Shown here in pieces: positions 9,418 through 56,541 of a DNA stretch of 64,000 bases (position 1 is the stretch's first letter; each line of letters starts with the position of its first letter). The notes beneath the pieces are model-generated. The model did not search any database. It saw only the letters and a program-made list of their open reading frames with translations, and was not told the origin of the DNA. This DNA is from Spartinivicinus poritis (GTDB taxonomy: Bacteria; Pseudomonadota; Gammaproteobacteria; Pseudomonadales; Zooshikellaceae), in the NCBI RefSeq assembly GCF_028858535.1, contig NZ_JAPMOU010000004.1:149473-213472 (forward strand). The letters are read 5' to 3'. Made by a program: the position numbers and the translations under genes.

Positions 9418-10470
9418 TGAACTCTCCATGTTTACATTTAAAAATCAACCTACCTATTTACTAAGTAAATGCACAACTTATCCTGTTACTTATTATTATT
9501 TAAAATATAAGTGCTAACTGAAGAAACTTATGACAATTCATTATTTTTAAACACAAGGAAAAATAATAATATTTTTTAGGAATCTAAAGATAGAAGATGG
9601 TTTTTCAGCTGACAAAGAGTTTTCAGGAATAAGCTACTCCCTACTTATAAAAAACAATGAATAATGCTTTTATTTGATAAAGACACTACTCTAAGCGCTA
9701 CACAGACTAGAAAACAAAGCTTTTAAAGCGATTTACAAATATTACGATTAAAAGTTTAATCAAGGCAAAGAAGTTAATACTAAATAATCTTATACCTGAT
9801 ATAGTCAAAGCGAATGTTTTTTAGGTACAACTACTGAATGCCAAAACACCATAAACCTGACAATAAAATGCTCCTTAGCAATTGCTCCTGCATTACTCTA
9901 ATTGGTGGTATCCATACCATCATACATTACTATCTTTGTTGATTAGCAATGAAGATCAAGTACCCTAGAGGTTTAGATATCTTCCAAGAAGAGTATATTA
10001 TAGGGGCACCTCTAGTATTTGTTATGCCTTTCAGAACTCTCTTTTAGTTGCATAGATCATTGCAAAAATATCATAAACCGAGGATGTTCTAGTAATCACT
10101 CACCAAAGCTCATTTATCAGTCAATCTAAAAATTAACAATTGAGCATTAATTGACTTTAAACACTTTCAAGACTATCCAGTCAAATATAGCTAAATGCTA
10201 TCCTTACATACCTAAAGCGACTAAATACAACCAACTCATAGTAAGTAAGTTATTTTATACACACATTTATTTTTAACTTACAAAAATCAAATTATTTCCA
10301 GGTCTATACAACAACATTAAAATAACATTACAATGTCAACTTATTTACTCAATCCAGTTATAAAAGTAAGTAATCACAATAAGTTCGATTTGAAAGATAA
10401 CTTTTTAAAAGAGTAACTATTTTTTTGTTATCTAAAGATAACTTATTTGCCCTAGTTAGGAGTTTACATT

Positions 10471-12661: not shown

Positions 12662-12792
12662 TAACCCACAGACAAAAGCAGGAAAATATAGAGTGATAAG
12701 GTGTCCTAGAGCTGCTGCGCTACTCAAAGCAAACGACAGCAACCAATCAATAAAGGGGACACCTTTAATATAAAAAGTGCTAGTGGAACCAG

Positions 12793-13785
12793 CTAAAGCT
12801 CATTCCCTGACGCTATACCCTCATAAAAACACTTTGCATTAAACAGAGTAGTGCTGGCTATTGAGCTAAGTGCATCTTTTGTGAAAAAACCTTGATGTCC
12901 GGTAATCAGCACATTAGGAAACGTTAACAGCCTACCCAACACATCATCGAGCAGTAACTCATTAGAGTGGTCATCATAAAGCATTGGTTTTTCATTTTCG
13001 TAAACATCAAGCCCTAGATTGCTAATTTTTCCAGATTTTAAGCCTTCAATTACAGCTTCTGTATCAATTAAACCACCTCTGCTGGTATTAATTAACATTA
13101 CTCCTTCTTTCATTGTCTTAATAGCTTGCTCATCAATAATATGATAATTGTCCTCCGTCATAGGACAATGTAATGTAATTACATCAGATTCAGCCAGTAG
13201 CTCAGAAAGACCTACATAATTAACGCCCACATCAATGCAGTCGTTACTTTCTACAATATCATGAGCAAGTATTTTACAACCCATTCCGCTTAAAATTTTT
13301 ACTACCGCAGTTCCAATCCTGCCAGTGCCAATAACACCAACCGTACAGTTATGAAAATCAAAACCAATAAATCCATTTAAAGCAAAATTATTTTCTTTTA
13401 CTCGATTATAGGCTCGATGTATTTTACGGTTTAATGTTAGCATTAGACCAACAGTATACTCTGCAACAGACTCTGGTGAATAAGCTGGCACATTCGCAAC
13501 GGTAATACCATGCTGCTTAGCAGCAGCCAAATCCACATTATTATAACCAGCAGCGCGTAAAGCAATTAACCGAGTGCCTCCCTTTGCAAGCTGCTCTATG
13601 ACTTCTTCATCAATAACATCATTAACAAACGCACAAACTGCTGGATAGTTTTCAGCCAACTTTGCAGTTTCTGCTGTTAAACGAGGTTCAAAATAACTAA
13701 TAGACAAACCACACTGCTCGTTTGCTTCAGTAAAAAATGCTTTATCATAACTATGGGTGTTAAATACTGCTAACTTCATCAGCAT
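12793..13785 (-). CDS. ldhA: D-lactate dehydrogenase (fermentative 2-hydroxyacid dehydrogenase)
   Basis: 330 aa. N-terminus MKLAVFNTHSYDKAFF parallels E. coli LdhA (MKLAVYSTKQYDKKY). NAD-binding GxGxxG (GVIGTGRIG) and the catalytic R/E/H arrangement of D-2-hydroxyacid dehydrogenases are present. Confidence 0.85.
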   Translation of the reverse strand: MLMKLAVFNTHSYDKAFFTEANEQCGLSISYFEPRLTAETAKLAENYPAVCAFVNDVIDEEVIEQLAKGGTRLIALRAAGYNNVDLAAAKQHGITVANVPAYSPESVAEYTVGLMLTLNRKIHRAYNRVKENNFALNGFIGFDFHNCTVGVIGTGRIGTAVVKILSGMGCKILAHDIVESNDCIDVGVNYVGLSELLAESDVITLHCPMTEDNYHIIDEQAIKTMKEGVMLINTSRGGLIDTEAVIEGLKSGKISNLGLDVYENEKPMLYDDHSNELLLDDVLGRLLTFPNVLITGHQGFFTKDALSSIASTTLFNAKCFYEGIASGNEL

Positions 13786-13914
13786 ACTACATCCTCACCT
13801 TTTGCTCTTGTCTTCATGATAAACCAACAGATCAAAACTTATTTGATTTACAGCAGGCATATACCCCACATGAATCATTTTTAGGTGTCAAAAATACTCA
13901 CATATCACTTCTAC

Positions 13915-21663: not shown

Positions 21664-21814
21664 TGTCGCAAAAGTACTTAAAATCAAGTTCCTTCTCCCC
21701 TGTAGGGAGAAGGTTAGGATGAGTGAGTCCGCGTAGCGGAGACTTTAAAGTAACTTCACCCTCACCCCAGCCCTCTCCCAGAGGGAGAGGGAGCTAAATA
21801 TAACTTTTGCGACA
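21664..21814. mobile_element. 151-bp MITE/REP-like element with perfect 12-bp terminal inverted repeats in the hexR-zwf intergenic region
   Basis: TGTCGCAAAAGT at 21664 and ACTTTTGCGACA at 21803 flank three perfect hairpins: CCTTCTCCC-CTGTA-GGGAGAAGG, GTCCGC-GTA-GCGGAC-like, and CCCTCTCCC-AGA-GGGAGAGGG. No coding capacity. Confidence 0.6.
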
Positions 21815-24955: not shown

Positions 24956-25203
24956 TATACCCAATGCGAAGGGTTTTTAGGGCTAGCCTACAGAGGTGAG
25001 GCTAGCAATAATAGCATTAACTGATAAAAGAGCGTTATCGGCAAGCCATCAAGTGACGAGTTCCAGTAGCACTTTTTATATCAATTAAAGTTGCTACCGC
25101 AAGTCTTACAGTAGTAGACTTGCCCCCATGAGCCTATATTAATAGGTGACTGGGGTGAGGAATGAAGATAACAAAACCTAAAAATGATTCGCGACGGGTA
25201 TAA
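24956..25203 (+). repeat. MITE-like structured repeat, copy 1 (full length)
   Basis: Begins TATACCCAATGCGAAGGGTTTTTAGGGCTAGCCTACAG immediately after the eda stop. About 90% identical over ~205 bp to the inverted copy at 34301-34504. Contains the hairpin GCTAGCCT...AGGCTAGC. Confidence 0.8.
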
Positions 25204-25630
25204 TACAGCTAGTGAGGCACTTACAATAGTGTTTACTAAAGGGAGTAATGACTCCCTTTACATTTGAGCATGATATTACTTTTCTACCCCACTAAACATC
25301 GTTGTTTTTTTGCCTTTAATTACTAATGACCAAGCATTTTTTACGCCCGACCCAGTGTAATTATTTTTTTCTGTATCTTTAAACCAATAATACAGTGGCA
25401 AACCATCATAAGTTAACTGTAATCAATTACAACTTAACAACAATACAAAAATAACACCAAAACAATGTTTGATGAGCATACCCCCCCATAAAAGCTCTTG
25501 TTGACTTATATCAATCATTGCTTTTTATTATAATCAAAAGATTACTTTAGAGCTGCCATTACTCTAACTGTCAAGTAAAATAAGCACACGACAATGATCA
25601 ATAACCAACCAATTTTTAAAGGAGTAACCT

Positions 25631-25744
25631 ATGTTAGCTCGGATGGCATTGGCTATTATTATATGGGCATTAACTATTACCGCCATCAACTTACAAGCAG
25701 CTGAAGTTAACTGTTTCCACACCGAGCAAACATGTAATAATTAA
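25631..25744 (+). CDS. candidate small ORF (37 aa, hydrophobic, two Cys) with strong SD
   Basis: AAAGGAGT sits 6 nt before the ATG. Peptide MLARMALAIIIWALTITAINLQAAEVNCFHTEQTCNN. Lies in a 1.2-kb AT-rich non-coding leader upstream of the GspE-like gene. Not in the supplied ORF track (too short). Confidence 0.25.
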   Translation: MLARMALAIIIWALTITAINLQAAEVNCFHTEQTCNN

Positions 25745-26390
25745 CAGCAAGGAAAGATAAATAAGGATCTATAAAAAAAGGGACAATCACCAATATCATT
25801 TAATTCTAGTAATTCCTCGTAGCTGCTCATTTAAATGACTACGAGGACTTTTATATATAGTTCTTATAGTTTGCTAAAGCTTACTCCACTTCTTAATAAT
25901 AGCTTTCTAGCCTTATATAAAAAACAAGATAATGCAAGTCTATATAACCCCTTACATAATGCAGGGCAAACATACGATGTAAGTTGATTTAACACAACAA
26001 TAATATTATTAACGATTGTTTTATTATGCTAACTTTCAGCGCTTGTGAATAATAACCAACATGCGAGCGAATTAGCATTTTCAGGCATATCTAATGATTG
26101 TTTACCCCTGAAGTCAGTCACTGCTACTATAAAAATTTTGGATACTATAATAAGGATGTAACTCACTAGTTATTTTTTACTTTCAAAAATATAGGCGCAC
26201 TATATTAATTAGAAATAATTTTGCAATTAATATAATAAACAATTATATAACAATATTTTTACCTGCTTATGTATGATTACCAAAAAAATTTGCTAGAATT
26301 ATAAAGCGCTGTTGAAGAAATTGATATCACCTATGATCAACTATTTAACCAGCTTACCTTTACAACAATTTTTAGGTTAAGGTTAAGCTT

Positions 26391-28160
26391 ATGCCTGGCC
26401 ATAATACCACTAACTTAAGTGTTCAACCTCTTCCCGAACCTATCAAGTCTTCCAGCCTTTTACTTAAAAGGCTGGAAGCTGCGAGTACTCCGGTATCTTA
26501 TCGCCTGGATATTTTACTTATTGTATTCGGTTTTCTGTCACAAGAAGCAAGACATGAAAATATTAAATATTTAAATAAACTGAACGCTGACTCAGACATT
26601 GGCCACTACTTAATAAGTAAAAATATTATAACAGAAAGAGAGTTTCAGCGTGTTTTAGCTTATAAATTAGGTATGCCTTTTGTGTCACTTATAGATTTAG
26701 AATTTGACCTAAATATTATAAATCTTTTACCTGAAGAAGTCGCTAGAGACCATACTGTATTGCCAGTATTAGATCTTGGAGAAAAACTAGTCATAGCAAT
26801 GACGTTGCCACTAAAAAGCCAAACTATAAAATATTTAAGTTTTTTAACCAATTTTGTTATTGAGCCTGTAATTGCAGAGAGAAAAGATATTGAGTTCGCA
26901 ATAGCAAGACTATACGGGACCAGTAGTGAACTTGAAGCATTAGAAGAGTTTAAAAGCAACTACCATGAAGGAAACAAGCTAACTAGCAAAGACAACCTAT
27001 TACTTGGCCAAAAAAAGCCTATTGTAAAACTTGTTCATAATATGATTCTTGATGCTATTGGTAGCAAGGCCTCCGACATACATTTGAGACCTTGTGAAAA
27101 CGGGATAGATTTATTATTTAGAATTGATGGTAGCTTAATTAAAATACGAACATTTACTAAAGGGCTACTAGCCCCCATCATAAGCAGGTTAAAAGTCATG
27201 TCAGGAATGGACCTTGCTGCACACCATTTACCACAGGATGGACAGGCTTATTTAAAAAAAGGTGATCGGCAAATTGACTTACGGTTTTCAGTTATACCTA
27301 CTATTTATGGAGAAAGCGCAGTTATAAGAATTCTTGATGCAAAGTATGGCATGAAGAATTTATCTGGTATTGGTTTCTCAGAAAAAGACTTAACCTTATT
27401 TACTAATTTATTACACCGATCAAATGGTATTATTCTAGTGACAGGACCTACTGGCTCCGGAAAATCAACAACCCTTTATGCCGCTTTACAAGAAATAAAA
27501 ATGCGTAATGTTAATGTTGTTACCGTAGAAGATCCGGTTGAATATCATATTGACGGTCTTGTACAAATACAAGTCAACCACTCGATTGGCTACACTTTTT
27601 CAAGGGCATTAAGGCATATTCTAAGACATGACCCTGATGTGCTTATGGTAGGTGAGATAAGAGATTTAGAGACAGCACAAATGGCTATTGAATGTAGCCT
27701 TACAGGACATATAGTACTCTCTACGTTACATACTAATAGTGCAGCAACAACTATAGCACGTTTACTAGAAATTGGTATTGATCCTTATCTTGTAAATACT
27801 TCCTTGTTAGGTGTTTTAGCCCAGCGGCTTGTTCGTTGTAACTGTAAACATTGCTTAGTGGAAGAAAAAGTAAGGGCTGGTGTTCACTCTTCTCTGGGTT
27901 TGAAAGATGAAGAAACTTTTTATCGAGGTAAAGGTTGCGACCACTGCCGTAACACAGGTTATTCAGGCCGGCATGCCGTTTATGAGTTACTGATTATGAG
28001 CAATGAAATTCGTCAAGCAACTATTAATGGTAGTGGTGCTGAGCTTATTAAAAATGCAGCTATAAAAGAAGGTATGACACCGCTCACACAACAAGCACTT
28101 AGCTTGGCTCGTAATAAACTAACATCGTTAGAAGAAGTATATCGAACCATTTTAGATTAA
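26391..28160 (+). CDS. GspE/PilB-family type II secretion / type IV pilus assembly ATPase, orphan
   Basis: 589 aa. N-terminal T2SSE_N-like domain. Walker A VTGPTGSGKSTT, Asp box, His box and the tetracysteine motif (C..C...C..C: CNCKHC...CDHCRNTG). No other secretion or pilus genes nearby. Confidence 0.85.
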   Translation: MPGHNTTNLSVQPLPEPIKSSSLLLKRLEAASTPVSYRLDILLIVFGFLSQEARHENIKYLNKLNADSDIGHYLISKNIITEREFQRVLAYKLGMPFVSLIDLEFDLNIINLLPEEVARDHTVLPVLDLGEKLVIAMTLPLKSQTIKYLSFLTNFVIEPVIAERKDIEFAIARLYGTSSELEALEEFKSNYHEGNKLTSKDNLLLGQKKPIVKLVHNMILDAIGSKASDIHLRPCENGIDLLFRIDGSLIKIRTFTKGLLAPIISRLKVMSGMDLAAHHLPQDGQAYLKKGDRQIDLRFSVIPTIYGESAVIRILDAKYGMKNLSGIGFSEKDLTLFTNLLHRSNGIILVTGPTGSGKSTTLYAALQEIKMRNVNVVTVEDPVEYHIDGLVQIQVNHSIGYTFSRALRHILRHDPDVLMVGEIRDLETAQMAIECSLTGHIVLSTLHTNSAATTIARLLEIGIDPYLVNTSLLGVLAQRLVRCNCKHCLVEEKVRAGVHSSLGLKDEETFYRGKGCDHCRNTGYSGRHAVYELLIMSNEIRQATINGSGAELIKNAAIKEGMTPLTQQALSLARNKLTSLEEVYRTILD

Positions 28161-28189
28161 AAAAAAACAAACTTGCTATCAATGGAGTA

Positions 28190-28447
28190 TTGACTATGCA
28201 TATCTCCTTAACGAAACCAGAGCTAGATAGAGCACTGATCAAAGCCACAGAAATGTGGGAAAAAAGTGATGATAGTGACTATTTAGCAAAATCGTTACTT
28301 TATCATAATCAGTTAGTGAAAAAGCTAGATGCTGTTTATAAGGCAGCTAAGCTATATTTACATTCAGGTAGTGGAGCAAAGGAGCATACAAAACTCATTA
28401 GAGCTATAGATATAGTAGAACAAATCGAGTCAATTAAAGAATGGTAA
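28190..28447 (+). CDS. small helical hypothetical protein cotranscribed with the GspE-like ATPase
   Basis: 85-aa ORF 29 nt downstream of the ATPase gene. GGAG lies 8 nt before the ATG. Followed by a hairpin terminator. Confidence 0.45.
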   Translation: MTMHISLTKPELDRALIKATEMWEKSDDSDYLAKSLLYHNQLVKKLDAVYKAAKLYLHSGSGAKEHTKLIRAIDIVEQIESIKEW

Positions 28448-28465
28448 AAACCATATCATAATTCA

Positions 28466-28495
28466 GGTAATAGTTTTTCAAACTATTACCTTTCC
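28466..28495 (+). terminator. hairpin terminator between convergent GspE-operon and rtcR
   Basis: GGTAATAGTTT-TTC-AAACTATTACC (11-bp perfect stem) followed by TTTCC. Confidence 0.6.
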
Positions 28496-28524
28496 AACGA
28501 AAACGGAGATAACTTTATAAACCA

Positions 28525-30147
28525 CTATGATCTAACCTGATTAAAGCTCAAACCAAACTTAGACAAATAAATCCGTAAACGATGACTATCATTATTAGAT
28601 GCTTTTTGCGTTCGAGAATAATTAAACAATTCCCTTCCTGCCGCCGATAACGACGATTGCTGCTGGCAAATAGAAATCACCTGCTGTAGTTGTAACTGAT
28701 CAAACAAATCAATTGAAGCTAATTGTTCTTCACTAAAATAATGTGCTAAGTCTACACCAAAATGATTAACTTTGGGCTGATCGGTTTGCCAGTGCTTGGA
28801 TAACCGTTCTACTTCTTCACTGACAATGATTTCATTAATTCGTCCTCCTTCTGCTAACGTTAACATCCTTTGTACGCTGGCATTTAAGTCACGAAAATTG
28901 CCTCGCCAACTGGCCTGTGAAGATGTAGCAAAAGCTAGGTATTGCTGCTTTGCCTGTTGATTAAAACTGGCTTTATGGGCTGTTTTTCGCTCATGCTCCT
29001 GTAGCTCATAATTCAAGTTTGGCTCAATATCTTCTTTTCGTTGAGCTAAACCAGGCAGCTGATAAGTCCATAAGTTGATACGAGCTAATAAGTCATCACG
29101 AAATACCCCTTCTTCAACTGCCTGATATAGATCTTTATTGGTGCCAGCTATTTGTTGAAAATCACTTTGGACAGGCTTATCACTACCTAATGGGTAGAAT
29201 GTTTTTTCCTCAATAGCATGTAGTAGCATAGCTTGTTCATCTAGCCCAAGCTCACCAATTTCATCAAGAAATAACAACCCTTGGTTTGCTGCTAATAATA
29301 AACCATCCCGCTTATTTTGAGCTCCAGTAAATGCCCCTTTAATATGACCAAATAATGCTGACATAGCATTATCACCTTTTAAGGTTGCACAGTTAACTGC
29401 AATAAAATCACCAGCAACCAAGCCTTTTTGTTGTTTTAGCTGATAAATTCGTTTTGCCAGCATTGATTTACCTGCTCCAGTTGGCCCAGTAATTAACATG
29501 GGTGCCGTACTCCGAACAGCGACTTTCTCGATCTGCTCGATCATTTGGTTAAACGCTTTATTTTTAGTTTGAATGCCACTTTTTAAGAAAGACTGGTCAT
29601 CTAAAGCTTCTTTTTGAAAACGCTGCGCTAAGGCATCATATTTAGATAAATCCAGATCAATAACGGAGTAAGTACCAATCGCATTACCTTCTTCGTCTTT
29701 TACTCCTGGAGAAGACTGCAATAAACGGGCAGGTATATAGTTAGCTTCACACAATAAAAACCAACAAATCTGCGCTACATGGGTCCCAGTGGTGATGTGC
29801 AAATAGTAGTCTTCCTTTTCAGGCTTAAACGGGTAAGACTGACAGAACTCCAATAGCACACTATAAACTTCTTCAAAATCCCAAGGGTCGATAAAGCGAA
29901 CTGAATGCAAATTGTAAGCTGTATGATTAGACACCTCCTGCACATCTTCACACACCTTAGTTGCCAAGTTTTTATCCCTTGGTTGATGCAGCAACTCTAA
30001 ACGATCTAGCTTAAGATCCTTTTGCTGAAAAATACTAACGGTTGGCCGCCAGCTACTCCAACGCTTAGTCCCTTTACCTCGACGATCCTTAGTCGTACCC
30101 AGCAAACCAATGGCAACCTTAGTTTTGTTTGTTTTTTCACTCGTCAC
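28525..30147 (-). CDS. rtcR: sigma-54-dependent transcriptional regulator RtcR (N-terminal CARF domain, AAA+ sigma-54 activator, C-terminal HTH)
   Basis: 540 aa. Collinear strong similarity to E. coli RtcR as recalled from memory, not searched (VAIGLLGTT, WSSWRPTVSIFQQ, DRLELLH, WDFEEVY, HITTGTHVAQICWFLL, MIEQIEKVA). Walker A LITGPTGAGKS. GAFTGA sigma-54 contact motif. Confidence 0.9.
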   Translation of the reverse strand: MTSEKTNKTKVAIGLLGTTKDRRGKGTKRWSSWRPTVSIFQQKDLKLDRLELLHQPRDKNLATKVCEDVQEVSNHTAYNLHSVRFIDPWDFEEVYSVLLEFCQSYPFKPEKEDYYLHITTGTHVAQICWFLLCEANYIPARLLQSSPGVKDEEGNAIGTYSVIDLDLSKYDALAQRFQKEALDDQSFLKSGIQTKNKAFNQMIEQIEKVAVRSTAPMLITGPTGAGKSMLAKRIYQLKQQKGLVAGDFIAVNCATLKGDNAMSALFGHIKGAFTGAQNKRDGLLLAANQGLLFLDEIGELGLDEQAMLLHAIEEKTFYPLGSDKPVQSDFQQIAGTNKDLYQAVEEGVFRDDLLARINLWTYQLPGLAQRKEDIEPNLNYELQEHERKTAHKASFNQQAKQQYLAFATSSQASWRGNFRDLNASVQRMLTLAEGGRINEIIVSEEVERLSKHWQTDQPKVNHFGVDLAHYFSEEQLASIDLFDQLQLQQVISICQQQSSLSAAGRELFNYSRTQKASNNDSHRLRIYLSKFGLSFNQVRS

Positions 30148-30366
30148 ACCAACCTCACCTTATTACATTGCATACAAATGCTGCTACTCGGCCCTACCAA
30201 TTAACCGCTAACATACATATTATTTATATAGATCAATATTATATCCATATAGATATTTCAACAACAAAACTTCAGCGACAGCAATTCATGCTGGCCTCTC
30301 AGGTGATTCTTGCTATACCTTGAATATCAAGGCCTCCAACACTTTTAACAAAGAAATTTTAAAAGT

Positions 30367-30382
30367 TGGCACGTTAATCGCC
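30367..30382 (+). promoter_or_regulatory. candidate sigma-54 (-24/-12) promoter divergent from rtcR
   Basis: TTGGCACGTTAATCGCC. It has an exact TGGCACG -24 element and GG-N10-GC spacing, with -12 TCGC (one mismatch to TTGC). Orientation reads rightward into the tRNA-like RNA region, mirroring the rtcR/rtcBA divergent arrangement. Confidence 0.4.
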
Positions 30383-30607
30383 TTATGATTACTGTGCAAA
30401 GCGGAATGCTTTAGCAGGTCTGGTTTTTTGCTTCAAACCAAAGCCAGCCTGGTAACTCTTGTTTCAAGTAAGTTGTACCAAAGCGTCCCAAGACACAGTG
30501 CCCTTTCTCGGCATGGATTCGTAAGAATCTTATTGGGTTTTTTATGATATGGCATACAACTGGGTTCGAGTCCCTAAAAACCACCATTCATACTGGCTTT
30601 TAACCAG

Positions 30608-30680
30608 TGCTTGATAGCTCATTTGGTAGAGCAGTTGCTTAGGGAGCAATTGGTAGAAGGTTCGATTCCTTCTCAAGCTG
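30608..30680 (+). tRNA. tRNA-like element / atypical tRNA (anticodon AGG, U1.U72 mismatch), possibly a Y-RNA-like tRNA mimic or pseudo-tRNA
   Basis: Folds into a full cloverleaf by hand. Acceptor is 6 bp plus a U.U pair. U8-A9 present. D-arm GCTC/ATTTGGTA/GAGC with G18G19. Anticodon arm GTTGC/TTAGGGA/GCAAT (U33, anticodon AGG, R37). 5-nt variable loop. T-arm GAAGG/TTCGATT/CCTTC. No encoded CCA. The body resembles tRNA-Lys but the anticodon loop is altered. AGG is not a normal bacterial anticodon. Confidence 0.5.
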
Positions 30681-30720
30681 TATAAATGTAAAAAGACTAC
30701 GCAAGTAGTCTGCAATGAAA

Positions 30721-30849
30721 TATACCCAAAGCGAAGGGTTTTTAGGTGAGGCTATCGAGTGATGAAGCCCCGTGAGCCTATAAATAATAGGTGATTGGGG
30801 TGAGTCACGATGATAACAAAGCCTAAAAGCGATTCGCGAAAGGTATAAA
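30721..30849 (+). repeat. MITE-like structured repeat, copy 2 (internally deleted, direct orientation relative to copy 1)
   Basis: TATACCCAAAGCGAAGGGTTTTTAGG ... GAGCCTATAAATAATAGGTGATTGGGGTGAG ... GATAACAAAGCCTAAAAGCGATTCGCGAAAGGTATAA matches both ends of copy 1. Confidence 0.75.
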
Positions 30850-31231
30850 AGAGGTTAGCGGTTGTTGCCGCTGTTTAGCTTAATTAAATAACAGCATTAA
30901 ATTTATCAAAACTTAAAGTGAATGCAGGAAGCAATTACTTAAGGAATGGTGACTTTAATGAGGTAGCTAAAGCTGTACTAGTAGTTACCAGTTATTTAAT
31001 TATTTGGTTCGTTATTGAATCATTCCTTACAGGGTTACATTCTGTGGATCAACCACATACGATGTACAAATGTAAGCGAACCATTCTTTAACCACCACTA
31101 TTCAAGTAACCGCCCCTAACTTCTTTAGTTATGATGAGTCGCTTTTTAGTAGTTAATCAACTACTGACCAGTACTCATCATGACTAATAAGTCCTATTTT
31201 TAAGGGCATTTAGATTTAATGGAGATGTATT

Positions 31232-32770
31232 GTGTTTAAGAAAATAGTTGTCGGGCAAAATGAGCGACTAATTGTTGTTAAAGATAAAAGATTAAGTAAA
31301 GTTCTATCGACAGGAGTACATTATCTGCCTATTTGGCAATATGATGATGTAGAATTGGTTAGTACTGAGTCAGTACGCTTCACTCATGACAGCCTAGAAC
31401 AGTGGCTAAAAGAGCCTGTATTTTTACAATATTTTGATAAACTAGAGTTAGGCCGATTTGAAGTTGGGTTAGTTTATAAACATGGTCAGCTTTGGCAGTT
31501 ATTAAACCCGGCGACTACCCACTATTTGTGGAAAAATAGTGATGATATTGAGGTGCGTACCATCAATACCGAAAATAGTTATTATCTTGAAGATGATCTA
31601 TTATGGCAATTAACAAACAAAGAGCAGTTTGTTATTAATGCTAATACCAGTAATGTTACTACCCATAAAGTTAATGCAGGATTCGTTGCTTTAATCTATG
31701 TGGACAGCCAACTTATCGATTTGCAAGGTGAAGGTGAGTTTGGAGTATGGCAGTATCAGCGCAAAATTGAAGTAGTCATGATGGATACCCGCAAAGGGTT
31801 AAAACTTGATTATATATTGCAGGAAAACTGGTTAGAAATTCCTGCTGTTGCAGAACAAATTGCGCTATTTAAAACTGAACCACAGCAAGTTGGGCTACTG
31901 TATGAAGTACAGCATGGCCAGCGTCGTTTTAATCAATTACTGCCACCAAATACTGAAATTGCTGTATGGCAACAGAATAAAGTGTGGGAGCTTGATCTGG
32001 TTGATATCAACAACGACTTTCGGGTAACCAAACCATTGCTAGATAGCTTACGTCAGTATTTAAGTGGCCAGTGGTTAACAACCTCTATCGACCAACAGCA
32101 TATCGGTTTGCTACTGCAAGATGGTCAATTGGTTAGCACCCTGAATACTGGGCTACACGCTTATTGGCCTTTTGGTCGCCAACTGGAAATAAAACAGTTT
32201 GATTTACGCTGGCAAACAGTGGAAGTCAGTGGACAAGAAATATTAACCAAAGATCGGGTTAGTGTGCGGGTCAACCTAAACGCCAACTATCGTATTTTAG
32301 ATGCGGTAACGACTTTTGAAAGCGTTAACAATGTTAATGAGTTTATTTACCGTACGTTACAGCTAGCATTACGAGAAGCCATAGGTACACGAAACTTAGA
32401 TGATTTGTTAATGGATAAAGAGCATGTAAATCAGCTATTGCTAAAGCAATCAGCGGAGCATTTATCATCTATTGGGATAGAGCTTGGTCAACTGGGAATA
32501 AAAGACATTATTTTACCTGGTGAGATGAAGGAAATTCTTAACCAGGTGGTTAATGCCCAAAAATCAGCAGAAGCTAACAGCATCAAGCGTCGGGAAGAAA
32601 CAGCTGCTACTCGTAGCCTGCAAAACACCGCCAAAGTTATGGAAGGCAACCCAACTTTGCTGCGCTTGAAAGAACTGGAGTCATTGGAGAAAGTAGCAGA
32701 AAAAATTGACCAATTAAATGTATATGGAGGATTAGAACAAGTAATGAATGGCTTAGTTAAGCTAAAGTAA
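31232..32770 (+). CDS. SPFH/Band 7 (stomatin/prohibitin-like) domain protein
   Basis: 512 aa. N-terminus VVGQNERLIVVKDKRL is typical of the SPFH beta-start. The C-terminal region carries an SPFH core and coiled-coil (ILPGEMKEILNQVVNAQKSAEA...). No NfeD partner adjacent. Confidence 0.75.
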   Translation: MFKKIVVGQNERLIVVKDKRLSKVLSTGVHYLPIWQYDDVELVSTESVRFTHDSLEQWLKEPVFLQYFDKLELGRFEVGLVYKHGQLWQLLNPATTHYLWKNSDDIEVRTINTENSYYLEDDLLWQLTNKEQFVINANTSNVTTHKVNAGFVALIYVDSQLIDLQGEGEFGVWQYQRKIEVVMMDTRKGLKLDYILQENWLEIPAVAEQIALFKTEPQQVGLLYEVQHGQRRFNQLLPPNTEIAVWQQNKVWELDLVDINNDFRVTKPLLDSLRQYLSGQWLTTSIDQQHIGLLLQDGQLVSTLNTGLHAYWPFGRQLEIKQFDLRWQTVEVSGQEILTKDRVSVRVNLNANYRILDAVTTFESVNNVNEFIYRTLQLALREAIGTRNLDDLLMDKEHVNQLLLKQSAEHLSSIGIELGQLGIKDIILPGEMKEILNQVVNAQKSAEANSIKRREETAATRSLQNTAKVMEGNPTLLRLKELESLEKVAEKIDQLNVYGGLEQVMNGLVKLK

Positions 32771-32806
32771 ACGTTGTGGTGCATATAGATGCACCACAAC
32801 GTTTTT
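32771..32806. terminator. bidirectional hairpin terminator between the convergent SPFH and 438-aa genes
   Basis: Perfect 14-bp stem ACGTTGTGGTGCAT-ATAG-ATGCACCACAACGT followed by TTTTT. An A-tract lies on the other side. Confidence 0.65.
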
Positions 32807-32832
32807 AATAAAAACAATTGATATTAAATAGG

Positions 32833-34149
32833 TTAATTACTTTCCCAATTGAATACTGTGCCGTCACTAAAATGAATCATCACTGTATTAGGCTTCACTA
32901 CTTTTTTGTTTAATAAATAATCTTTACTGCTAAAATTGGCGGTAATCGTGGAGCCATCACTAAAGGTTGTTTGTTGTACTTGTCGACTTTTAGTTAAGTC
33001 AAGAAATTTCACTAAAGCCTTATCCCAAAGTTTTTCATGAGCTATCTGAAATCCTTTCGCATAGTGTTTTAAAGCAGGCAACCGCTTTCGTAAGCTATTA
33101 CGACTAATATGCAACATTGGCGGTGTGTTATATAACATCGCGGTTAAATCACGTACCACTTTCACATCGGAAAATTTTAAACTGTCTGCCCCCCAATGGT
33201 AGCCATTAATAACAGCATCATGAAACACGGCCTGATATAACGGCAGTTTATACTCGGGCGCAAACAATAAATTTTTATAAAGCATTTTGACTTGAGCTGG
33301 CTTAAAGAAAACCTGCGGCTCGTCATTTGGCCACCAAGTACCAAGATAATATGGTGATTGTTTATTTTTACGCATGTCTGGATCACGCCAACCAAAACCT
33401 GTAGTTTGAATTCCATGAGCAAATACTATTGACGACGTATTAATTGCATTACCATCTTCAGAGCCTAATGGTAGTTGATATTGATCCACAAACCACTGCA
33501 AGCGATAATTAAATCCTTTTGCCATGGTAGACTGGGAGTGTAAACGTTTAGAATGGTAATCCTCATAAAGCATTCCAGTGGCATCAGCGTCCAAAAATAA
33601 ACTATTAAAACCACCATAGTGCATGATTTTAGCAGTACGTTGCTGATAGTAAGTTTGCATACAACTTGGATTGGTATATACTCCTTTTCCTTTATAGCCC
33701 ATTTTTTTATATCCATCTTTCTTAACAATGCCACAGTTTTCCCGTAACTGGCTAGGTATCTGAGCAGTCAGCCAATTATCATTTACCCCCATCGGTATTG
33801 CTGTATTATACGAATCATAGGTGCTTATTAAGTAGCCAGCCTGTTTTGCCGCTATGACAGCCTCTGGATGATAAAAAGCTGAGGTCCAACTGGGTGTCAG
33901 TAATAATAATTTATTCAATTTGGCTGTTTGAAAATCCTCTATGACAGGTTTGGATAATCCCTGTCCCCAATTGACTACTGGCTTTAAAAAAACTCCCAAT
34001 CTTGCTTTCACTATTTTTTTTCTTTTTTTTGCTACCAGGTACTGCTGATCAATAAAATCTCTTTTATCCGGATCAGAAGAGACTGGTAATACTTTTGTGA
34101 ACGCATGATTAAGCATTTCAATCACTTTACGCTGGTGATAGTGATTCAT
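32833..34149 (-). CDS. hypothetical protein (large, possibly carbohydrate-active/TIM-barrel-like)
   Basis: 438-aa ORF with good coding statistics. No confidently recognised motifs; the carbohydrate-enzyme idea is tentative. Confidence 0.55.
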   Translation of the reverse strand: MNHYHQRKVIEMLNHAFTKVLPVSSDPDKRDFIDQQYLVAKKRKKIVKARLGVFLKPVVNWGQGLSKPVIEDFQTAKLNKLLLLTPSWTSAFYHPEAVIAAKQAGYLISTYDSYNTAIPMGVNDNWLTAQIPSQLRENCGIVKKDGYKKMGYKGKGVYTNPSCMQTYYQQRTAKIMHYGGFNSLFLDADATGMLYEDYHSKRLHSQSTMAKGFNYRLQWFVDQYQLPLGSEDGNAINTSSIVFAHGIQTTGFGWRDPDMRKNKQSPYYLGTWWPNDEPQVFFKPAQVKMLYKNLLFAPEYKLPLYQAVFHDAVINGYHWGADSLKFSDVKVVRDLTAMLYNTPPMLHISRNSLRKRLPALKHYAKGFQIAHEKLWDKALVKFLDLTKSRQVQQTTFSDGSTITANFSSKDYLLNKKVVKPNTVMIHFSDGTVFNWESN

Positions 34150-34300
34150 CCATTGTGAATTTATACCCGTATCGAATCATTTTTAGGTTTTGTTATCTTC
34201 GTTCCTAATCACCAAGGATGGTGTGAATGCAGTTAATGCATTATGACATGGATGTCATGTATTAGGGCAATGCAGGAGTAGTTGCCTAGGAGCATTTAAC

Positions 34301-34504
34301 TGTCACCCCAATCACTTATTAATATAGGCTCATGGGGACAAGTCTACTACTGTAAGACTTGCGGTAGCGACTTTAATGGATATAAAAGTGCTACTGGAAC
34401 TCGTCACTTGATGGCTTACCAATAACGCTGTTTTATCAATTAATGCTATTATTGCTAGCCTCACTGCTGTAGGCTAGCCCTAAAAACCCTTCACATTGGG
34501 TATA
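34301..34504 (-). repeat. MITE-like structured repeat, copy 3 (inverted relative to copy 1)
   Basis: Its reverse complement begins TATACCCAATGTGAAGGGTTTTTAGGGCTAGCCTACAGCAGTGAGGCTAGC and stays ~90% identical to copy 1 through ...GGGGTGA. Confidence 0.8.
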
Positions 34505-34610
34505 TATAACGTTAAAAACACATAAATATTAAAGCAATCAATATCATAAAAAGCGTTTATAACAATTTTTTACCAGTTAGGCTTATGAAAATTATATAGC
34601 TCAGAACCTA

Positions 34611-34871
34611 TTACTGCCACTTGCACAGAGGCTGCTCATAGATAGTATATTTCTCACAGCTACTTTTAGTCCTAAATCCTCCACACCATTTTTTTAAATT
34701 AAAATCTTGCGTCTGGTAATTATTCTCTGAATTTTGTAAACAGCTTTGTGCTTTAACTTCAACATAACCTGGATATAAACTTAGCTCTGGTTTATCATAA
34801 CAATAATTCATGACTGATTCTTTATCATATGATCCAATAAATACAAATAAATTATATAATTCTTTTAACAT
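34611..34871 (-). CDS. small Cys-rich hypothetical ORF downstream of bla (overlaps its 3' end by 20 nt)
   Basis: 86-aa ORF with 6 Cys. No SD check possible. Could be spurious. Confidence 0.25.
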   Translation of the reverse strand: MLKELYNLFVFIGSYDKESVMNYCYDKPELSLYPGYVEVKAQSCLQNSENNYQTQDFNLKKWCGGFRTKSSCEKYTIYEQPLCKWQ

Positions 34872-35643
34872 GTAATGCTTCTTTTATAATCTGTTTTCTT
34901 AGTTTTCGTTGACTATCTTTCATTAGATCTATATTTATTGCAAAAAACCATGTTTGATTATCCTTCTCTAGGAAACCAACATACCAGCCTATGTCTATCC
35001 CTTTTCCATTTTTCATTACCCAACCTGTTTTTCCATATAGTTTATATGATGGATTACTTTCATTAAGCATAATCTTCTTAGTTTTTTTCTGATATTTTTT
35101 GTAGTATGGCAGTCTTTCAGAATATAATTTTTTTAGAAACTCAATTTGTTGATATGCATTGATTCGTAACTTTCCATCTAACCAAAACGTCGTTAAATTG
35201 CCTAACTCTCTATTACCATAGTTCATTTTTTTTAAGTGATACCGATACTGCAATCTCCCAACATCTTGAGCTACCTCTTGATAACACCATATACATGAAT
35301 TGGATAATGCAGACTGTAATGTATGATTTTGATTCCATATCTTCCATCCTTTATCTTTTCCATCCCATAAAAATACATGACCATCAGGATTTATAGCCCC
35401 CTCTGCAAGACCAATTAGTGTATTAGGGATTTTGAATGTTGATGCAGGTAAATAATTTTTTTTTGCTCTAGATTCATTATGTATGTACACTTTTTTTCCA
35501 TCAGTGGACGATATAACCAATGTACCATTTACATTATATTTATTGAAAATGCTTAATAATTGCTTATCCTCAACCCCATATGAAAAAACAGCCTGAATAA
35601 ATAAAAGCGAACCTAAAAATAGGTTTTTGATATGTATCTTCAT
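34852..35643 (-). CDS. blaOXA: class D (OXA-type) beta-lactamase
   Basis: 263 aa with a signal peptide. Class D motifs are present: STFK (PASTFKIPN), YGN (NYGNRELG), KTG (YGKTGW) and W.xG (IGWYVGF). Confidence 0.85.
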   Translation of the reverse strand: MKIHIKNLFLGSLLFIQAVFSYGVEDKQLLSIFNKYNVNGTLVISSTDGKKVYIHNESRAKKNYLPASTFKIPNTLIGLAEGAINPDGHVFLWDGKDKGWKIWNQNHTLQSALSNSCIWCYQEVAQDVGRLQYRYHLKKMNYGNRELGNLTTFWLDGKLRINAYQQIEFLKKLYSERLPYYKKYQKKTKKIMLNESNPSYKLYGKTGWVMKNGKGIDIGWYVGFLEKDNQTWFFAINIDLMKDSQRKLRKQIIKEALHVKRII

Positions 35644-36243
35644 GATTTTAGAAGCCTATTAATGTAAATTGAAAAAACTATTTTATATAAATAACTAAGA
35701 AACTTTGTACTTTTCTGATGATCAATTATGATAAAAAATGGCATTAAGTACCCATTTATTTAATCTTACCGAGCACCCTATTATTACACGCCTTGCCTCT
35801 CACGCTAGAATTTAAACAGTAAATTAGTATTGTATTTATTGTAATGGGTATTACACTCCAAAGGTAAAAGTCAATAAAATATTTACCTATTTACAAAGAA
35901 AAATATAGAGGGTAATCAACAAGAAAGAAGATTATTATTTAACTTGGCATTAATTATATTTACATTCTTAAAAGATGTTTAATTACACAATAAATTCTGA
36001 ACTTAATAGATATTTGTACTTATTGTGGTAGATATTCGTCCATCCAACGTACACTTTAAGTGTGAAGTTATTAAAGTGTACGCTATGACCTACTAAATCT
36101 TTAATTGAAGGGTTCGTTATTATTTTTCGTCTATATTGAGTTTAATTCTGAACAGTTGACTTGCTGGAGATAAAATAGTGATATTTCTTTATTTGATATA
36201 ATTTCTTGCTTTGGCTTTATTTTTACTGTTGCACAAAACAAAT

Positions 36244-36777
36244 TTAAAGATTGAATCCAGCTTTTATCAATGTATTTTTTTTGTGCTGGTTGATTTTTTT
36301 ATAACATGTATTTTTATCATTGCATGTCTTTCTTATATCAGTAATTGTTCCTCCCATCTGATATCCATCTTTTTCTGCATTGAATAACGTATAGCCTACA
36401 TGCACCTTAAACTGGCCATTTTTACATGGCTGAATCACTTTAGTAATTAGTGAGTTAGATTTATTATTAGGAGAATAATCTGCAACTTCGTTTAGTACTT
36501 TTTCTTTTATAATGTCTTCAAAGCTATTATATGTACGATTAGGAGAACCTATTAATGCAGCAATTTCACTTGATTCTATTCTCTTAGCAAAATCACTACG
36601 TTTTAATTTAACCTTATCAAGATCTAATTGCTTTTCTTTACAGGGAGAGCGTATAACACTTAATTCATAAGGCGTTAAATTATATACTTTAAAAGTATAA
36701 TTCTCAGGTGCAGCCTGAACTGTCAGTACTACCATTAAATTACTAATGATAGCTAGTTTAATTCTATACAACCACAT
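36244..36777 (-). CDS. secreted hypothetical protein
   Basis: 177 aa. Signal peptide ...LMVVLTVQAAP. Lys-rich and AT-rich gene in the low-GC insertion. Confidence 0.5.
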   Translation of the reverse strand: MWLYRIKLAIISNLMVVLTVQAAPENYTFKVYNLTPYELSVIRSPCKEKQLDLDKVKLKRSDFAKRIESSEIAALIGSPNRTYNSFEDIIKEKVLNEVADYSPNNKSNSLITKVIQPCKNGQFKVHVGYTLFNAEKDGYQMGGTITDIRKTCNDKNTCYKKINQHKKNTLIKAGFNL

Positions 36778-36947
36778 TATTAATTACTCAAATGCTGACT
36801 ACTTTGATATAACACTCAACAGCAGGCAGACATCTTCTAGTTCTATCAGATTACATTAAGCTGGTGAAGGATACAGATAAAGGCTCCTTTAAACATCATA
36901 GGTTACTGCCCCTATCAAGATTATTATTTTATGCCATAAATACTAAT

Positions 36948-37250
36948 CTAATTAGCATTACAAGGATATCGACTTACAAATGCTCCTTCAGGATTTTTAG
37001 TTTTTGCAAGATCGGCAACTGGATATTTTTCACACATTTTGGTAATTTTGCTACCAAGATTAAACTTATCTTCAATATGGTGTTCTTCCGACGCAATAAC
37101 CTGACCATCCTTATAAGCATAAAATGTGTAGATACCCTTTGGCAGACCACCAACTGCATTTCTTAACCATTGACTACTACAACCACTCAGCAAAATTAAA
37201 CCAACAAATAACAAGACCAATTTTTCTTTCATAACAAATCTTTTAGTCAT
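36948..37250 (-). CDS. small lipoprotein (hypothetical)
   Basis: Lipobox LLSGCSS after a hydrophobic segment. 100 aa. Confidence 0.5.
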   Translation of the reverse strand: MTKRFVMKEKLVLLFVGLILLSGCSSQWLRNAVGGLPKGIYTFYAYKDGQVIASEEHHIEDKFNLGSKITKMCEKYPVADLAKTKNPEGAFVSRYPCNAN

Positions 37251-37385
37251 ATAAATAATTGGAGATAAGTAAACTTATTATTTTCAAATAATATTAACAA
37301 AATGTCACGTGAATGTAACATTTTCAACAAATATAAGACAATTTAAGTATAAACACCTACTCTTTTTGAAGATATTGAGCGAATA

Positions 37386-37691
37386 TCAATCAGATCTGTT
37401 TTCATTTATTAGCATTGAGTAAATGCAATTCAATGTTAGACTTTCAACTACCTCTAACTCAAAACTACCAGTGTTTAAACAGTTTTTTGCAACAGTTATG
37501 ACTGAGTCAATCATAGACAATGCCCATTCTATAGGGATATCTTCTCTTAGTTTTCCTTTAAGCTTCAAAGCAATTAACTCACTTTTAAGCCTGTTTGTAG
37601 CATTAAATTTTTCACCTTGAATTAATTGTATTACTAAATACTCTATATTACATTTTTTTCTTTCAAATACAGTTGATGAGTTTTCGTTCAA
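37386..37691 (-). CDS. hypothetical protein
   Basis: 101-aa ORF. Preceded (5') by a copy of a ~40-bp motif that is also found 5' of bla. Confidence 0.4.
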   Translation of the reverse strand: MNENSSTVFERKKCNIEYLVIQLIQGEKFNATNRLKSELIALKLKGKLREDIPIEWALSMIDSVITVAKNCLNTGSFELEVVESLTLNCIYSMLINENRSD

Positions 37692-37970
37692 TTACATTTA
37701 CCTTATTATTAGAATGCCTATTACCTAACAAGCAAGTATATCCAACAGAATTGCTTTGGCAGGCAATCCTACACCAAGGCATTATAATAACAATGGTTTT
37801 ATGAAGATCAATTATGACAAAAAATGACATTAAGATAATTTTAAGTGCTCACTTTTCAACAGTGATTCCAGCATTCCAACACAACAACACCTTCTCAACA
37901 CCAATATTTACACCAATTTATTAACGACACCTGAACTATTGTAGTTACACTGCTCCTTTCCCAGACACGC

Positions 37971-38213
37971 TTGCACAGTTGGCTGTATTATCTAACGTTT
38001 ATTTTCTTAACTGCCTTTGTATTTTTAAATATGATGGTAGATACGATCTTAGATGTAATGAGCCAAGAGCAAGAAAAATTTCGCGCTGAATCTCATGGTG
38101 AAACAGAAGAAGGTGGTACACCTGCCAGTCGGGCTCAGATTGAAAAGCTAGAAAAAGAGTTAACTGAAATAAAAGCGCTATTAAAACAACAAACATCTAT
38201 CAAAGAACAATAG
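37971..38213 (+). CDS. hypothetical membrane-anchored coiled-coil peptide
   Basis: 80 aa. N-terminal hydrophobic helix then a charged coiled-coil. Weak support. Confidence 0.3.
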   Translation: MHSWLYYLTFIFLTAFVFLNMMVDTILDVMSQEQEKFRAESHGETEEGGTPASRAQIEKLEKELTEIKALLKQQTSIKEQ

Positions 38214-38277
38214 CTACTTTTAGTTAGCCCAGCGAAATTTATCTTCTGAGCTAACACAAACTGTAGGACACCTTTAA

Positions 38278-54301: not shown

Positions 54302-54835
54302 TTACGACTGTATAACTATACCTAATGCGTAGGGTTTCACCAACCTACATGATGGAGGCGGAATTTTTGTGCTCTTTTCATGCTTTAGTCTTTCAACGTT
54401 CTCTCGAAGCTGCCAAATTTCCCGCTCTAGTTCCCGTATCCGCTGCTCTGTACGATAAGCACGCTCTCCCTGGTGCCAGGCCCGTAAAAACTCAGCCTCT
54501 TCCTCCTCAGAGCAAACACCAGAGTAACTATAGCCATGTCGCCCCAGATAGTAGCCATTAGCCGGACGACAATAATGGCGAACGCCTTCCTCACGACCTT
54601 GTTGATAACTAGTTAAGTCTGGAACAACCCCATACTCTGCACAAGCTTTGCGGTGCTCTGCAACAAAGCCTGGTAATCGCCCTTTAGTACCATCTTCATA
54701 ACCAATAGTCTGCCAGTTAGCAGACAAACACTCTTCCCGGCTTAGTGTGGCACAACCATTCAACCCAACAATAGCAAGTCCTATCAAGGCCCAACGCCAC
54801 AAAGGCGTTATTTTTGTTGCAATTCTGACCACCAC
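54302..54835 (-). CDS. lipoprotein (DUF2799-like, Cys-rich periplasmic domain)
   Basis: 177 aa. Lipobox LNGCAT. Conserved Cys pairs and a coiled-coil C-terminus. Confidence 0.55.
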   Translation of the reverse strand: MVVRIATKITPLWRWALIGLAIVGLNGCATLSREECLSANWQTIGYEDGTKGRLPGFVAEHRKACAEYGVVPDLTSYQQGREEGVRHYCRPANGYYLGRHGYSYSGVCSEEEEAEFLRAWHQGERAYRTEQRIRELEREIWQLRENVERLKHEKSTKIPPPSCRLVKPYALGIVIQS

Positions 54836-56293: not shown

Positions 56294-56541
56294 CCACTGG
56301 CCTAAAAATTGCCGTGACTTTATCTCTAATTGTTAACGCCACTCATCTATTATTCATAGCCCCATGGGTGCAAATCTGTTACTGCAGTTGCTACCCTAGC
56401 TGATCAAAAATGCTACTGGGGCTCATCACTCAGTCGTCTAACCCAAAATTCTTTTACATTGGGTATACTATTTTCATTTCCCTTAGAATATCTTAATATT
56501 CACTATTAATTAAAATATAAGTTGCTTTTTACTTATCGGTT

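Follow-up and report, generated by a model that had tools for sequence, protein, structure and literature searches.

An ERIC-like family of miniature inverted-repeat elements with IS630-type ends in Spartinivicinus poritis

ERIC sequences are transposable elements of the miniature inverted-repeat type (MITEs) that have inverted ends, duplicate their target and terminate in TA (PMC2229807), and they have been reported in the Enterobacteriaceae and Vibrionaceae (PMC2229807, PMC3184786, PMC10969869). In Yersinia they are reported to affect the abundance of transcripts (De Gregorio 2005, as related in PMC2229807 and PMC10969869), and the ERIC-type MITEPlu5 of Photorhabdus resembles the 'CCC-type' ends of IS630-family insertion sequences (ISs) and duplicates TA (PMC6267812). 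A link between ERIC and IS630 was already known, and judged from the terminal sequences it is much tighter in the elements described here, which form a family of small non-coding repeats in a 64,000-nt stretch of DNA (the window, to which all of our copy counts refer) from the coral-associated Spartinivicinus poritis A2-2. The members of this family have an ERIC-like body between IS630-type ends, and we compare them with ERIC, with IS630-family elements from metagenomes, and with the orthologous loci of the sister species S. marinus and S. ruber.

The repeats form a genuine family, far beyond what chance would produce. The 26-nt left end (TATACCCAATGCGAAGGGTTTTTAGG) was found three times in the window when up to one mismatch was allowed and not once in 100 shuffles, and a generic end pattern (TATACCCNNNNNGAANNNTTTTTAGG) was found eight times with up to two mismatches, again with no occurrence in the shuffles. 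The right end of each element (CCTAAAAATGATTCGCGACGGGTATA) is an imperfect reverse complement of the left end, and together these make up terminal inverted repeats of 26 bp with 20/26 positions complementary (TATACCC..GAA..TTTTTAGG), a feature which an initial annotation of the window had left unstated. Full copies start with TATACCC (TATAGTC in the case of copy E) and end with ..GTATA, and the element as a whole is an imperfect palindrome in which the inverted ends surround an ERIC-like core (CCCCATGAGCCTAT..TAGGTGAYTGGGGTGA). In its basic form the element measures 127 bp, and the long forms add one or two internally structured modules; when three inserted stretches are removed from copies A and C, which are 94% complementary to each other across 122+85+46 nt in a repeat search, a 129-bp ERIC-like form is left. 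Module I (~120 bp) is itself palindromic and is also found in copy D as well as in copies from S. marinus and S. ruber, and module II (96 bp) is common to copies C and E and has kept a small hairpin through compensating changes. The individual members are listed in Table 1.

Table 1. Members of the repeat family and related pieces in the S. poritis A2-2 window.
Feature	Position	Strand	Description
Copy E	9800–9997	+	Full but diverged (~67% to others); left end TATAGTCAAAGCGAATGTTTTTTAGG, module II, right end ..GAGTATA; without module I
Fossil fragment	~12760–12845	-	Left-end-like and module I-like piece; weak match (E 0.04)
Solo terminal repeat TATACCCCACATGAATCATTTTTAGG	13860–13885	+	Right-end/IS type; intergenic; matches the end pattern exactly and the IS end at 21/26 positions
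Copy A	24956–25202	+	247-bp long form; 26-bp ends, ERIC-like core, module I (24982–25123)
Copy B	30721–30847	+	127-bp short form; between tRNA-Pro(AGG) and the SPFH gene
Copy C	34162–34504	-	343-bp long form; as copy A plus module II (34207–34302)
Left-end-like piece TATACCTAATGCGTAGGGTTT..	54317–54340	+	21–24 nt, within the last codons of the DUF2799 gene
Copy D	56301–56468	-	168 bp; old and diverged; part of module I; right end lost

The initial annotation had recognised a family of four copies, and the family itself stands, but two of the four sets of coordinates were truncated, and copy E and the fossil pieces had been missed. Copies A and B were correctly placed and needed only small corrections (from 24956–25203 and 30721–30849, respectively). 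Copy C had been given as 34301–34504, missing the far end of the element (34162–34206) which lies beyond the extra 96-bp module, and copy D had been reduced to a short piece at ~56408–56468. An internal hairpin (GCTAGCCT/AGGCTAGC) attributed to the family does exist, although it is confined to the long copies A and C, and the proposed lack of coding capacity was borne out by the absence of open reading frames (ORFs) of at least 50 aa within these two copies. The additional members came from low-stringency BLAST and profile searches, which identified copy E (module II of this copy has a profile HMM E-value of 3.8e-23), one solo end and the fossil pieces. Short-read contigs of S. poritis A2-2 end inside copies A, B and C, as would be expected of repeats, and the elements account for these breaks in the short-read assembly. 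Scans of the window with Rfam, both at the gathering threshold and with permissive settings, returned only the tRNA-Pro, and the repeats match no RNA family there.

Some of the older pieces overlap genes. The fossil at ~12760–12845 overlaps the 3' end of a 2-hydroxyacid dehydrogenase gene and has its counterpart in S. marinus, which also has the left-end-like piece at 54317–54340, probably an ancient fossil as well. We note that fossil MITE pieces (54302–54340 and 12793–12845) supply the final codons of the DUF2799 and 2-hydroxyacid dehydrogenase genes, respectively, and as both pieces are conserved in S. marinus, coding sequence appears to have taken up old element ends.

The core sequence CCCCATGAGCCTATATTAATAGGTGACTGGGGTGAG resembled the ERIC primers and for this reason we made a comparison with E. 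coli ERIC, using the 127-bp copy in the ybhJ–ybhI spacer as the reference. Copy B, which is also 127 bp, is colinear with this reference with 85 identical positions and a z-score of 6.6 (from 2000 dinucleotide shuffles), and this holds in the forward orientation only. It shares 88 identical positions with Vibrio ERIC (z 8.2), and the E. coli and Vibrio ERICs share 102 with each other; overall, the short form is 67–69% identical to the E. coli and Vibrio sequences. An nhmmer search of 169 kb with a single ERIC query matched only Spartinivicinus elements, and a profile built on 11 ERICs (from E. coli, Salmonella, Klebsiella and Vibrio) also found only element copies in the same 169 kb (E 8.8e-6 to 2.4e-4, with no others up to E 10). 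These were copies A (E 8.8e-6), B and C (E 1.5e-5) and both of the S. ruber copies, matching profile positions 28–97, and nothing matched the profile in 933 kb taken from 48 further gammaproteobacterial genomes, nor in metagenome loci totalling 286 kb. The predicted hairpin architecture, one long hairpin, is the same in copy B, its S. ruber orthologue and E. coli ERIC, with 18/30 consensus pairs in a joint alignment kept through changes on both sides, and in 15/15 short forms, from three bacterial orders, the same strand is the more stable as RNA (by 5–17 kcal/mol).

The Spartinivicinus elements are therefore like ERIC (also known as IRU or RU-1, and as MITEEc1, MITEYpe1 and MITEPlu5 in ISfinder) in being 127-bp imperfect palindromes with TATAC..GTATA termini and TA duplication, in having the central core CCCCxxGAGC..GTGAyTGGGGTGA (the ERIC1R/ERIC2 primer region), in having one strand that folds far better as RNA, in occurring as shorter and longer variants, and in their intergenic location adjoining stop codons. 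They differ in that the 20-nt arms inside the termini are of another sequence (GCGAAGGGTTTTTAGG / CCTAAAAATGATTCGC) and the long forms carry the ~120-bp and 96-bp structured modules, and the host belongs to the Oceanospirillales (Zooshikellaceae-type), outside the reported Enterobacteriaceae and Vibrionaceae range (PMC10969869). The ERIC-type arm ..AATAATTCGAGTTGCAGG.. was not found, with 12–13/26 positions shared with the E. coli or Vibrio ERIC ends, and the arms are instead of the IS630 'GAATCATTTTTAGG' type. Judged on sequence, the elements are best described as a divergent branch and not as canonical ERIC.

Other repeat families were also considered. The Correia elements of Neisseria (CREE/NEMIS) have 26-bp inverted ends starting from TATA, TA duplication, a length of 100–160 bp and co-transcribed hairpins, and differ from the Spartinivicinus elements in host and core; we know of no sequence similarity between the two beyond TATA. 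REP/BIME sequences are GC-rich palindromes of 20–40 bp with a GTAG/CGTC head and a RAYT transposase, and the REP-like nature suggested for the repeats in the initial annotation did not survive comparison, as elements of 127–343 bp that are AT-rich with 26-bp inverted ends have a different architecture and no GTAG/CGTC head. An integron attC reading was ruled out on architecture and synteny.

The ends of the elements were followed further in metagenome contigs, where a scan for the generic end pattern gave 40 loci (L069–L108). Two of the contigs, L106 and L107, each contain one complete TA-flanked element of 1.12 kb with perfect ends (TATACCCATCGTGAATCATTTTTAGG and TATACCCGTAGCGAATCATTTTTAGG, respectively), and the L107 end shares 25/26 positions with the right ends of copies A and C. 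Each of these elements has a single ORF (343 or 353 aa) with the Pfam domains DDE_3 and HTH_33, and the two proteins score 207 and 225 bits against NCBIfam NF033545 transpos_IS630, for which the cut-off is 100. As their ends are identical at 23/26 positions despite only 56% identity between the transposases, we regard the end sequence as a stable mark of this IS630 clade. The other metagenome loci include IS-sized pairs of such ends as well as many MITE-sized pairs (67–220 bp) with unrelated interiors. It should also be noted that TATACCCGTMGCGAATSATTTTTAGG is the end sequence by which an IS630 clade widespread in the environment can be recognised, and that some of the matches to it are on contigs of very large assemblies (JACCDN01.., JAEEGH01..).

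Compared with IS630-family ISs and their MITEs, such as RUP of S. pneumoniae with IS630-Spn1 and the 'CCC-type' ISPlu3/8/19 of Photorhabdus, the Spartinivicinus elements have the same TA target and TA duplication, and their ends likewise begin with TA|TACCC. They differ in having no transposase gene, in a left end which has drifted (20/26), and in an interior which is ERIC-like and not the remnant of a transposase gene.

We compared the S. poritis sites with the orthologous loci from S. marinus (L050, L057 and L058) and S. ruber (L054 and L056). Gene identities place the three species as ((poritis, marinus), ruber), with zwf 94.7% identical in the first pair as against 84%, and beyond the genus the closest Zwf proteins, with 70% identity, are those of Pseudomonas, Halomonas and Balneatrix. 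When the element and one TA are taken out of S. poritis site A, the remaining sequence (GGCTTAATAATACAGC) aligns without gaps to S. marinus (GAGTTAACAATACAGC), and the same is true of the wider flanks (..GGCTTAATAATACAGCTAGTG.. and ..GAGTTAACAATACAGCTAGTG.., respectively); this alignment was made after removing an unrelated IS3-family insertion from the S. marinus site. The IS3-family insertion sequence (L050 10661–11900) is located directly 3' of eda and flanked by ACAAT(A), and as it is only a few bases from the TA of copy A, two different elements have each hit the site just 3' of the eda stop codon. In S. ruber there is unrelated sequence 3' of eda with no element in the place of copy A. 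Site B is also empty in S. marinus with a TA at the junction, where the flank alignment needs short gaps, and in S. ruber it is occupied at the same position (L054 20488–20613) by a 126-bp element with 91% identity, similar to that of the flanks. We note that the S. ruber tRNA-Pro–SPFH spacer (L054 20488–21012) holds two short-form copies in opposite orientation and 283 bp apart, and that the second has lost both TATACCC termini.

No element was found upstream of GH129 in S. ruber, the position of copy C. The orthologue of copy D is a 66-bp mini copy in S. marinus (L057 8421–8486) which retains both termini, and the two have a common left junction (gaaaatag|TATACCC) and a common downstream gene. 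Copy E is not in the matching S. marinus spacer, which has been rearranged and so provides no clean empty site. From these comparisons, the family inserts at TA and duplicates it, as was seen at the S. marinus empty sites, and the insertions are spread over a long time. Copies B and D are old and common to more than one species, and copies A and C are young, 94% alike and absent from sister species; the latter are independent, recent single insertions. The suggestion in the initial annotation that the repeats are non-autonomous and MITE-like is upheld by the terminal inverted repeats, TA duplication, empty sister-species sites, size variants and lack of coding capacity.

Our preferred explanation, to which we assign a probability of roughly 80%, is that the elements are an ERIC-type MITE family which is mobilised by IS630 and resident in the genus Spartinivicinus. 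The match of the right end to that of an intact IS630-family IS (25/26 positions) points to an ERIC-type MITE whose movement most probably depends on an IS630-family transposase acting in trans. Under this model, an IS630-family (Tc1/mariner-type DDE) transposase supplied in trans would recognise the element ends and place the element at a TA dinucleotide, which would be duplicated, and such insertions would build up over a long time in Spartinivicinus. The elements would then be carried in neighbouring transcripts. Copy A is inserted at the TA that follows the eda stop codon immediately, ahead of an eda terminator hairpin which is also kept in S. marinus, and from this position we infer that copy A is co-transcribed with eda. 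A very stable RNA hairpin in such a transcript may alter mRNA stability, by analogy with ERIC in Yersinia.

Several results weigh against this explanation. The similarity to ERIC is limited to the central 70 nt and the terminal TATAC, and the 20-nt arms differ completely. Searches by tblastn with the metagenome IS630 transposases found nothing in the window or across 105 kb from related Spartinivicinus loci, so the partner IS was not found in the Spartinivicinus DNA examined, and the 120 relatives closest to the metagenome transposase are metagenome proteins, not one of which bears the Spartinivicinus name; a tblastn search of plasmids with the IS630 transposases gave only relatives with no more than 46% identity. 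In addition, S. poritis and S. ruber both have copy B and S. marinus, the closer relative of S. poritis, lacks it, a distribution which needs loss, (local) recombination or repeated insertion.

The difference in the arms also raises the alternative that the elements are an IS630-derived MITE unrelated to ERIC, with an interior that resembles ERIC through convergence or by chance between similar-sized AT-rich palindromes. The metagenomic MITEs with equal ends and unrelated interiors lend this some weight, as they imply that interiors are exchangeable, as does the BLAST search with copy B which had no match in 28 Gb of E. coli genomes, although the latter can be attributed to a database too large for a 67% match (copy A similarly had no BLAST match amongst plasmids, and an exact scan for the left end found it absent from the genome collection, which did not include Spartinivicinus, and from the metagenome contigs). 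However, an identical length of 127 bp, colinearity at 67–69% identity with z-scores of 6.6–8.2, profile matches at five independent loci with none in ~1.4 Mb of control DNA, and a match that is orientation-specific and accompanied by an equal strand asymmetry in RNA stability all argue against this alternative, and we consider it quite improbable. A different view is that the copies are kept mainly as putative RNA elements, acting as hairpins for mRNA decay or termination in 3' or 5' untranslated regions, with mobility explaining only their origin. This draws on the very stable RNA folds (z -6.7 to -9.1) of a strand that is the same in every short form, on the position of copy A between stop codon and terminator, the sense orientation of copies A, B and C relative to both flanking genes, a level of conservation of copy B between S. 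poritis and S. ruber equal to that of the adjacent tRNA-containing flank, and on the transcript effects related for ERIC in Yersinia. The second S. ruber copy is nonetheless antisense in the same spacer, many of the copies are decaying (D, E and the fossils), and paired changes are equally expected of inverted ends bound by a transposase, and in our opinion it is unlikely that retention as RNA elements is the better account.

The initial annotation had also suggested that the inverted pair A and C might have delivered the 9 kb of DNA between them as a composite unit or might mediate its inversion. These copies are indeed inverted, 94% identical and 9 kb apart, and repeats of 200–250 bp can support homologous recombination, but the genes they enclose have the same locus, order and orientation in the sister species. 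The block after eda consists of a T2SS-E-type ATPase, a small ORF, RtcR, tRNA-Pro(AGG) and SPFH in all three species, and continues in S. ruber with GH129 and then glk–edd. As S. marinus and S. ruber show this order without having copy A and/or C (site A is empty in S. marinus and there is no element at the site C position in S. ruber), the genes must be ancestral at this locus, and the repeats did not bring them in. The TA flanks are separate for each copy, the GC content at 25–34 kb is similar to that of the rest of the window, and no inverted arrangement of the A–C segment was seen in S. poritis, S. marinus or S. ruber; the segment is thus neither missing nor reoriented where the repeats are missing, as it would be in a composite transposon or invertible segment. 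Recombination between copies A and C is possible in principle and nothing indicates that it has occurred, and we regard a composite transposon or inversion switch as very improbable. What appeared to be cargo bracketed by repeats is ordinary chromosome with single MITE insertions, and there is no mobile island or switch to infer.

An ERIC-type MITE mobilised by IS630, as we prefer, extends the ERIC-type family to a coral-associated genus of the Oceanospirillales and links the ends of the family more closely than was previously the case with one defined IS630-family transposase clade, making ERIC-type mobilisation experimentally testable. We tentatively raise the possibility, which we hold with some doubt, that the Spartinivicinus elements are a natural 'bridge' form in which an ERIC body lies between ends that are 25/26 like those of intact and widespread IS630-family ISs. 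To our knowledge, the enzyme that mobilises ERIC has been unknown since 1990, and if this IS630 clade were to mobilise ERIC-type repeats generally, a concrete and testable transposase would be named. ERIC-type MITEs would then also reach well beyond the Enterobacterales and Vibrionales, possibly having spread by end-swapping between MITE bodies and new transposases.

The region containing copies A–C sits between two halves of the Entner–Doudoroff genes, hexR–zwf–pgl–eda and glk–edd. It had been claimed that the repeats abut gene ends each time, and this is correct only in part: copy A adjoins the eda stop codon, copy C has its right end 12 nt upstream of the annotated GH129 start, copy B is 40 nt 3' of a tRNA and copy D is 73 nt past a hydrolase stop codon. 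Although 3/3 informative copies are in the sense orientation, this number is too small to test for an orientation bias and S. ruber has an antisense copy.

Just outside copy C is a low-GC (0.31) stretch at 34505–38277 with small ORFs and a class D (OXA-type) beta-lactamase (34852–35643, minus strand), which had no relative with at least 90% identity in the protein collection. This is a species-specific variable segment adjoining the MITE, and S. ruber carries other genes there (L056 7080–9867). Upstream of copy B, a sigma-54-type promoter-like site (TTGGCACGTTAATCGCC, 30365–30383) is divergent from rtcR (28525–30147, minus strand) and is followed by a conserved leader of ~230 nt holding a piece like the 3' half of a tRNA (GGGTTCGAGTCCC..ACCACCA), downstream of which is the tRNA-Pro with the unusual anticodon AGG (30608–30680). 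This arrangement of rtcR, sigma-54-type site and tRNA-Pro is kept in S. marinus and S. ruber, and no rtcB, rtcA or rsr gene is close to rtcR or the tRNA-Pro(AGG). The leader and tRNA-Pro region may be an RtcR-controlled tRNA-like or Y-RNA-like transcript. Finally, two GC-rich palindromes (CTTCTCCCCTGTAGGGAGAAGG and CCCTCTCCCAGAGGGAGAGGGAG) in the hexR–zwf gap (21690–21790) make up a second repeat-like pair that is unrelated to the MITE, and a short-read contig from the same strain (L001) begins within these, which suggests that they belong to another multi-copy family.

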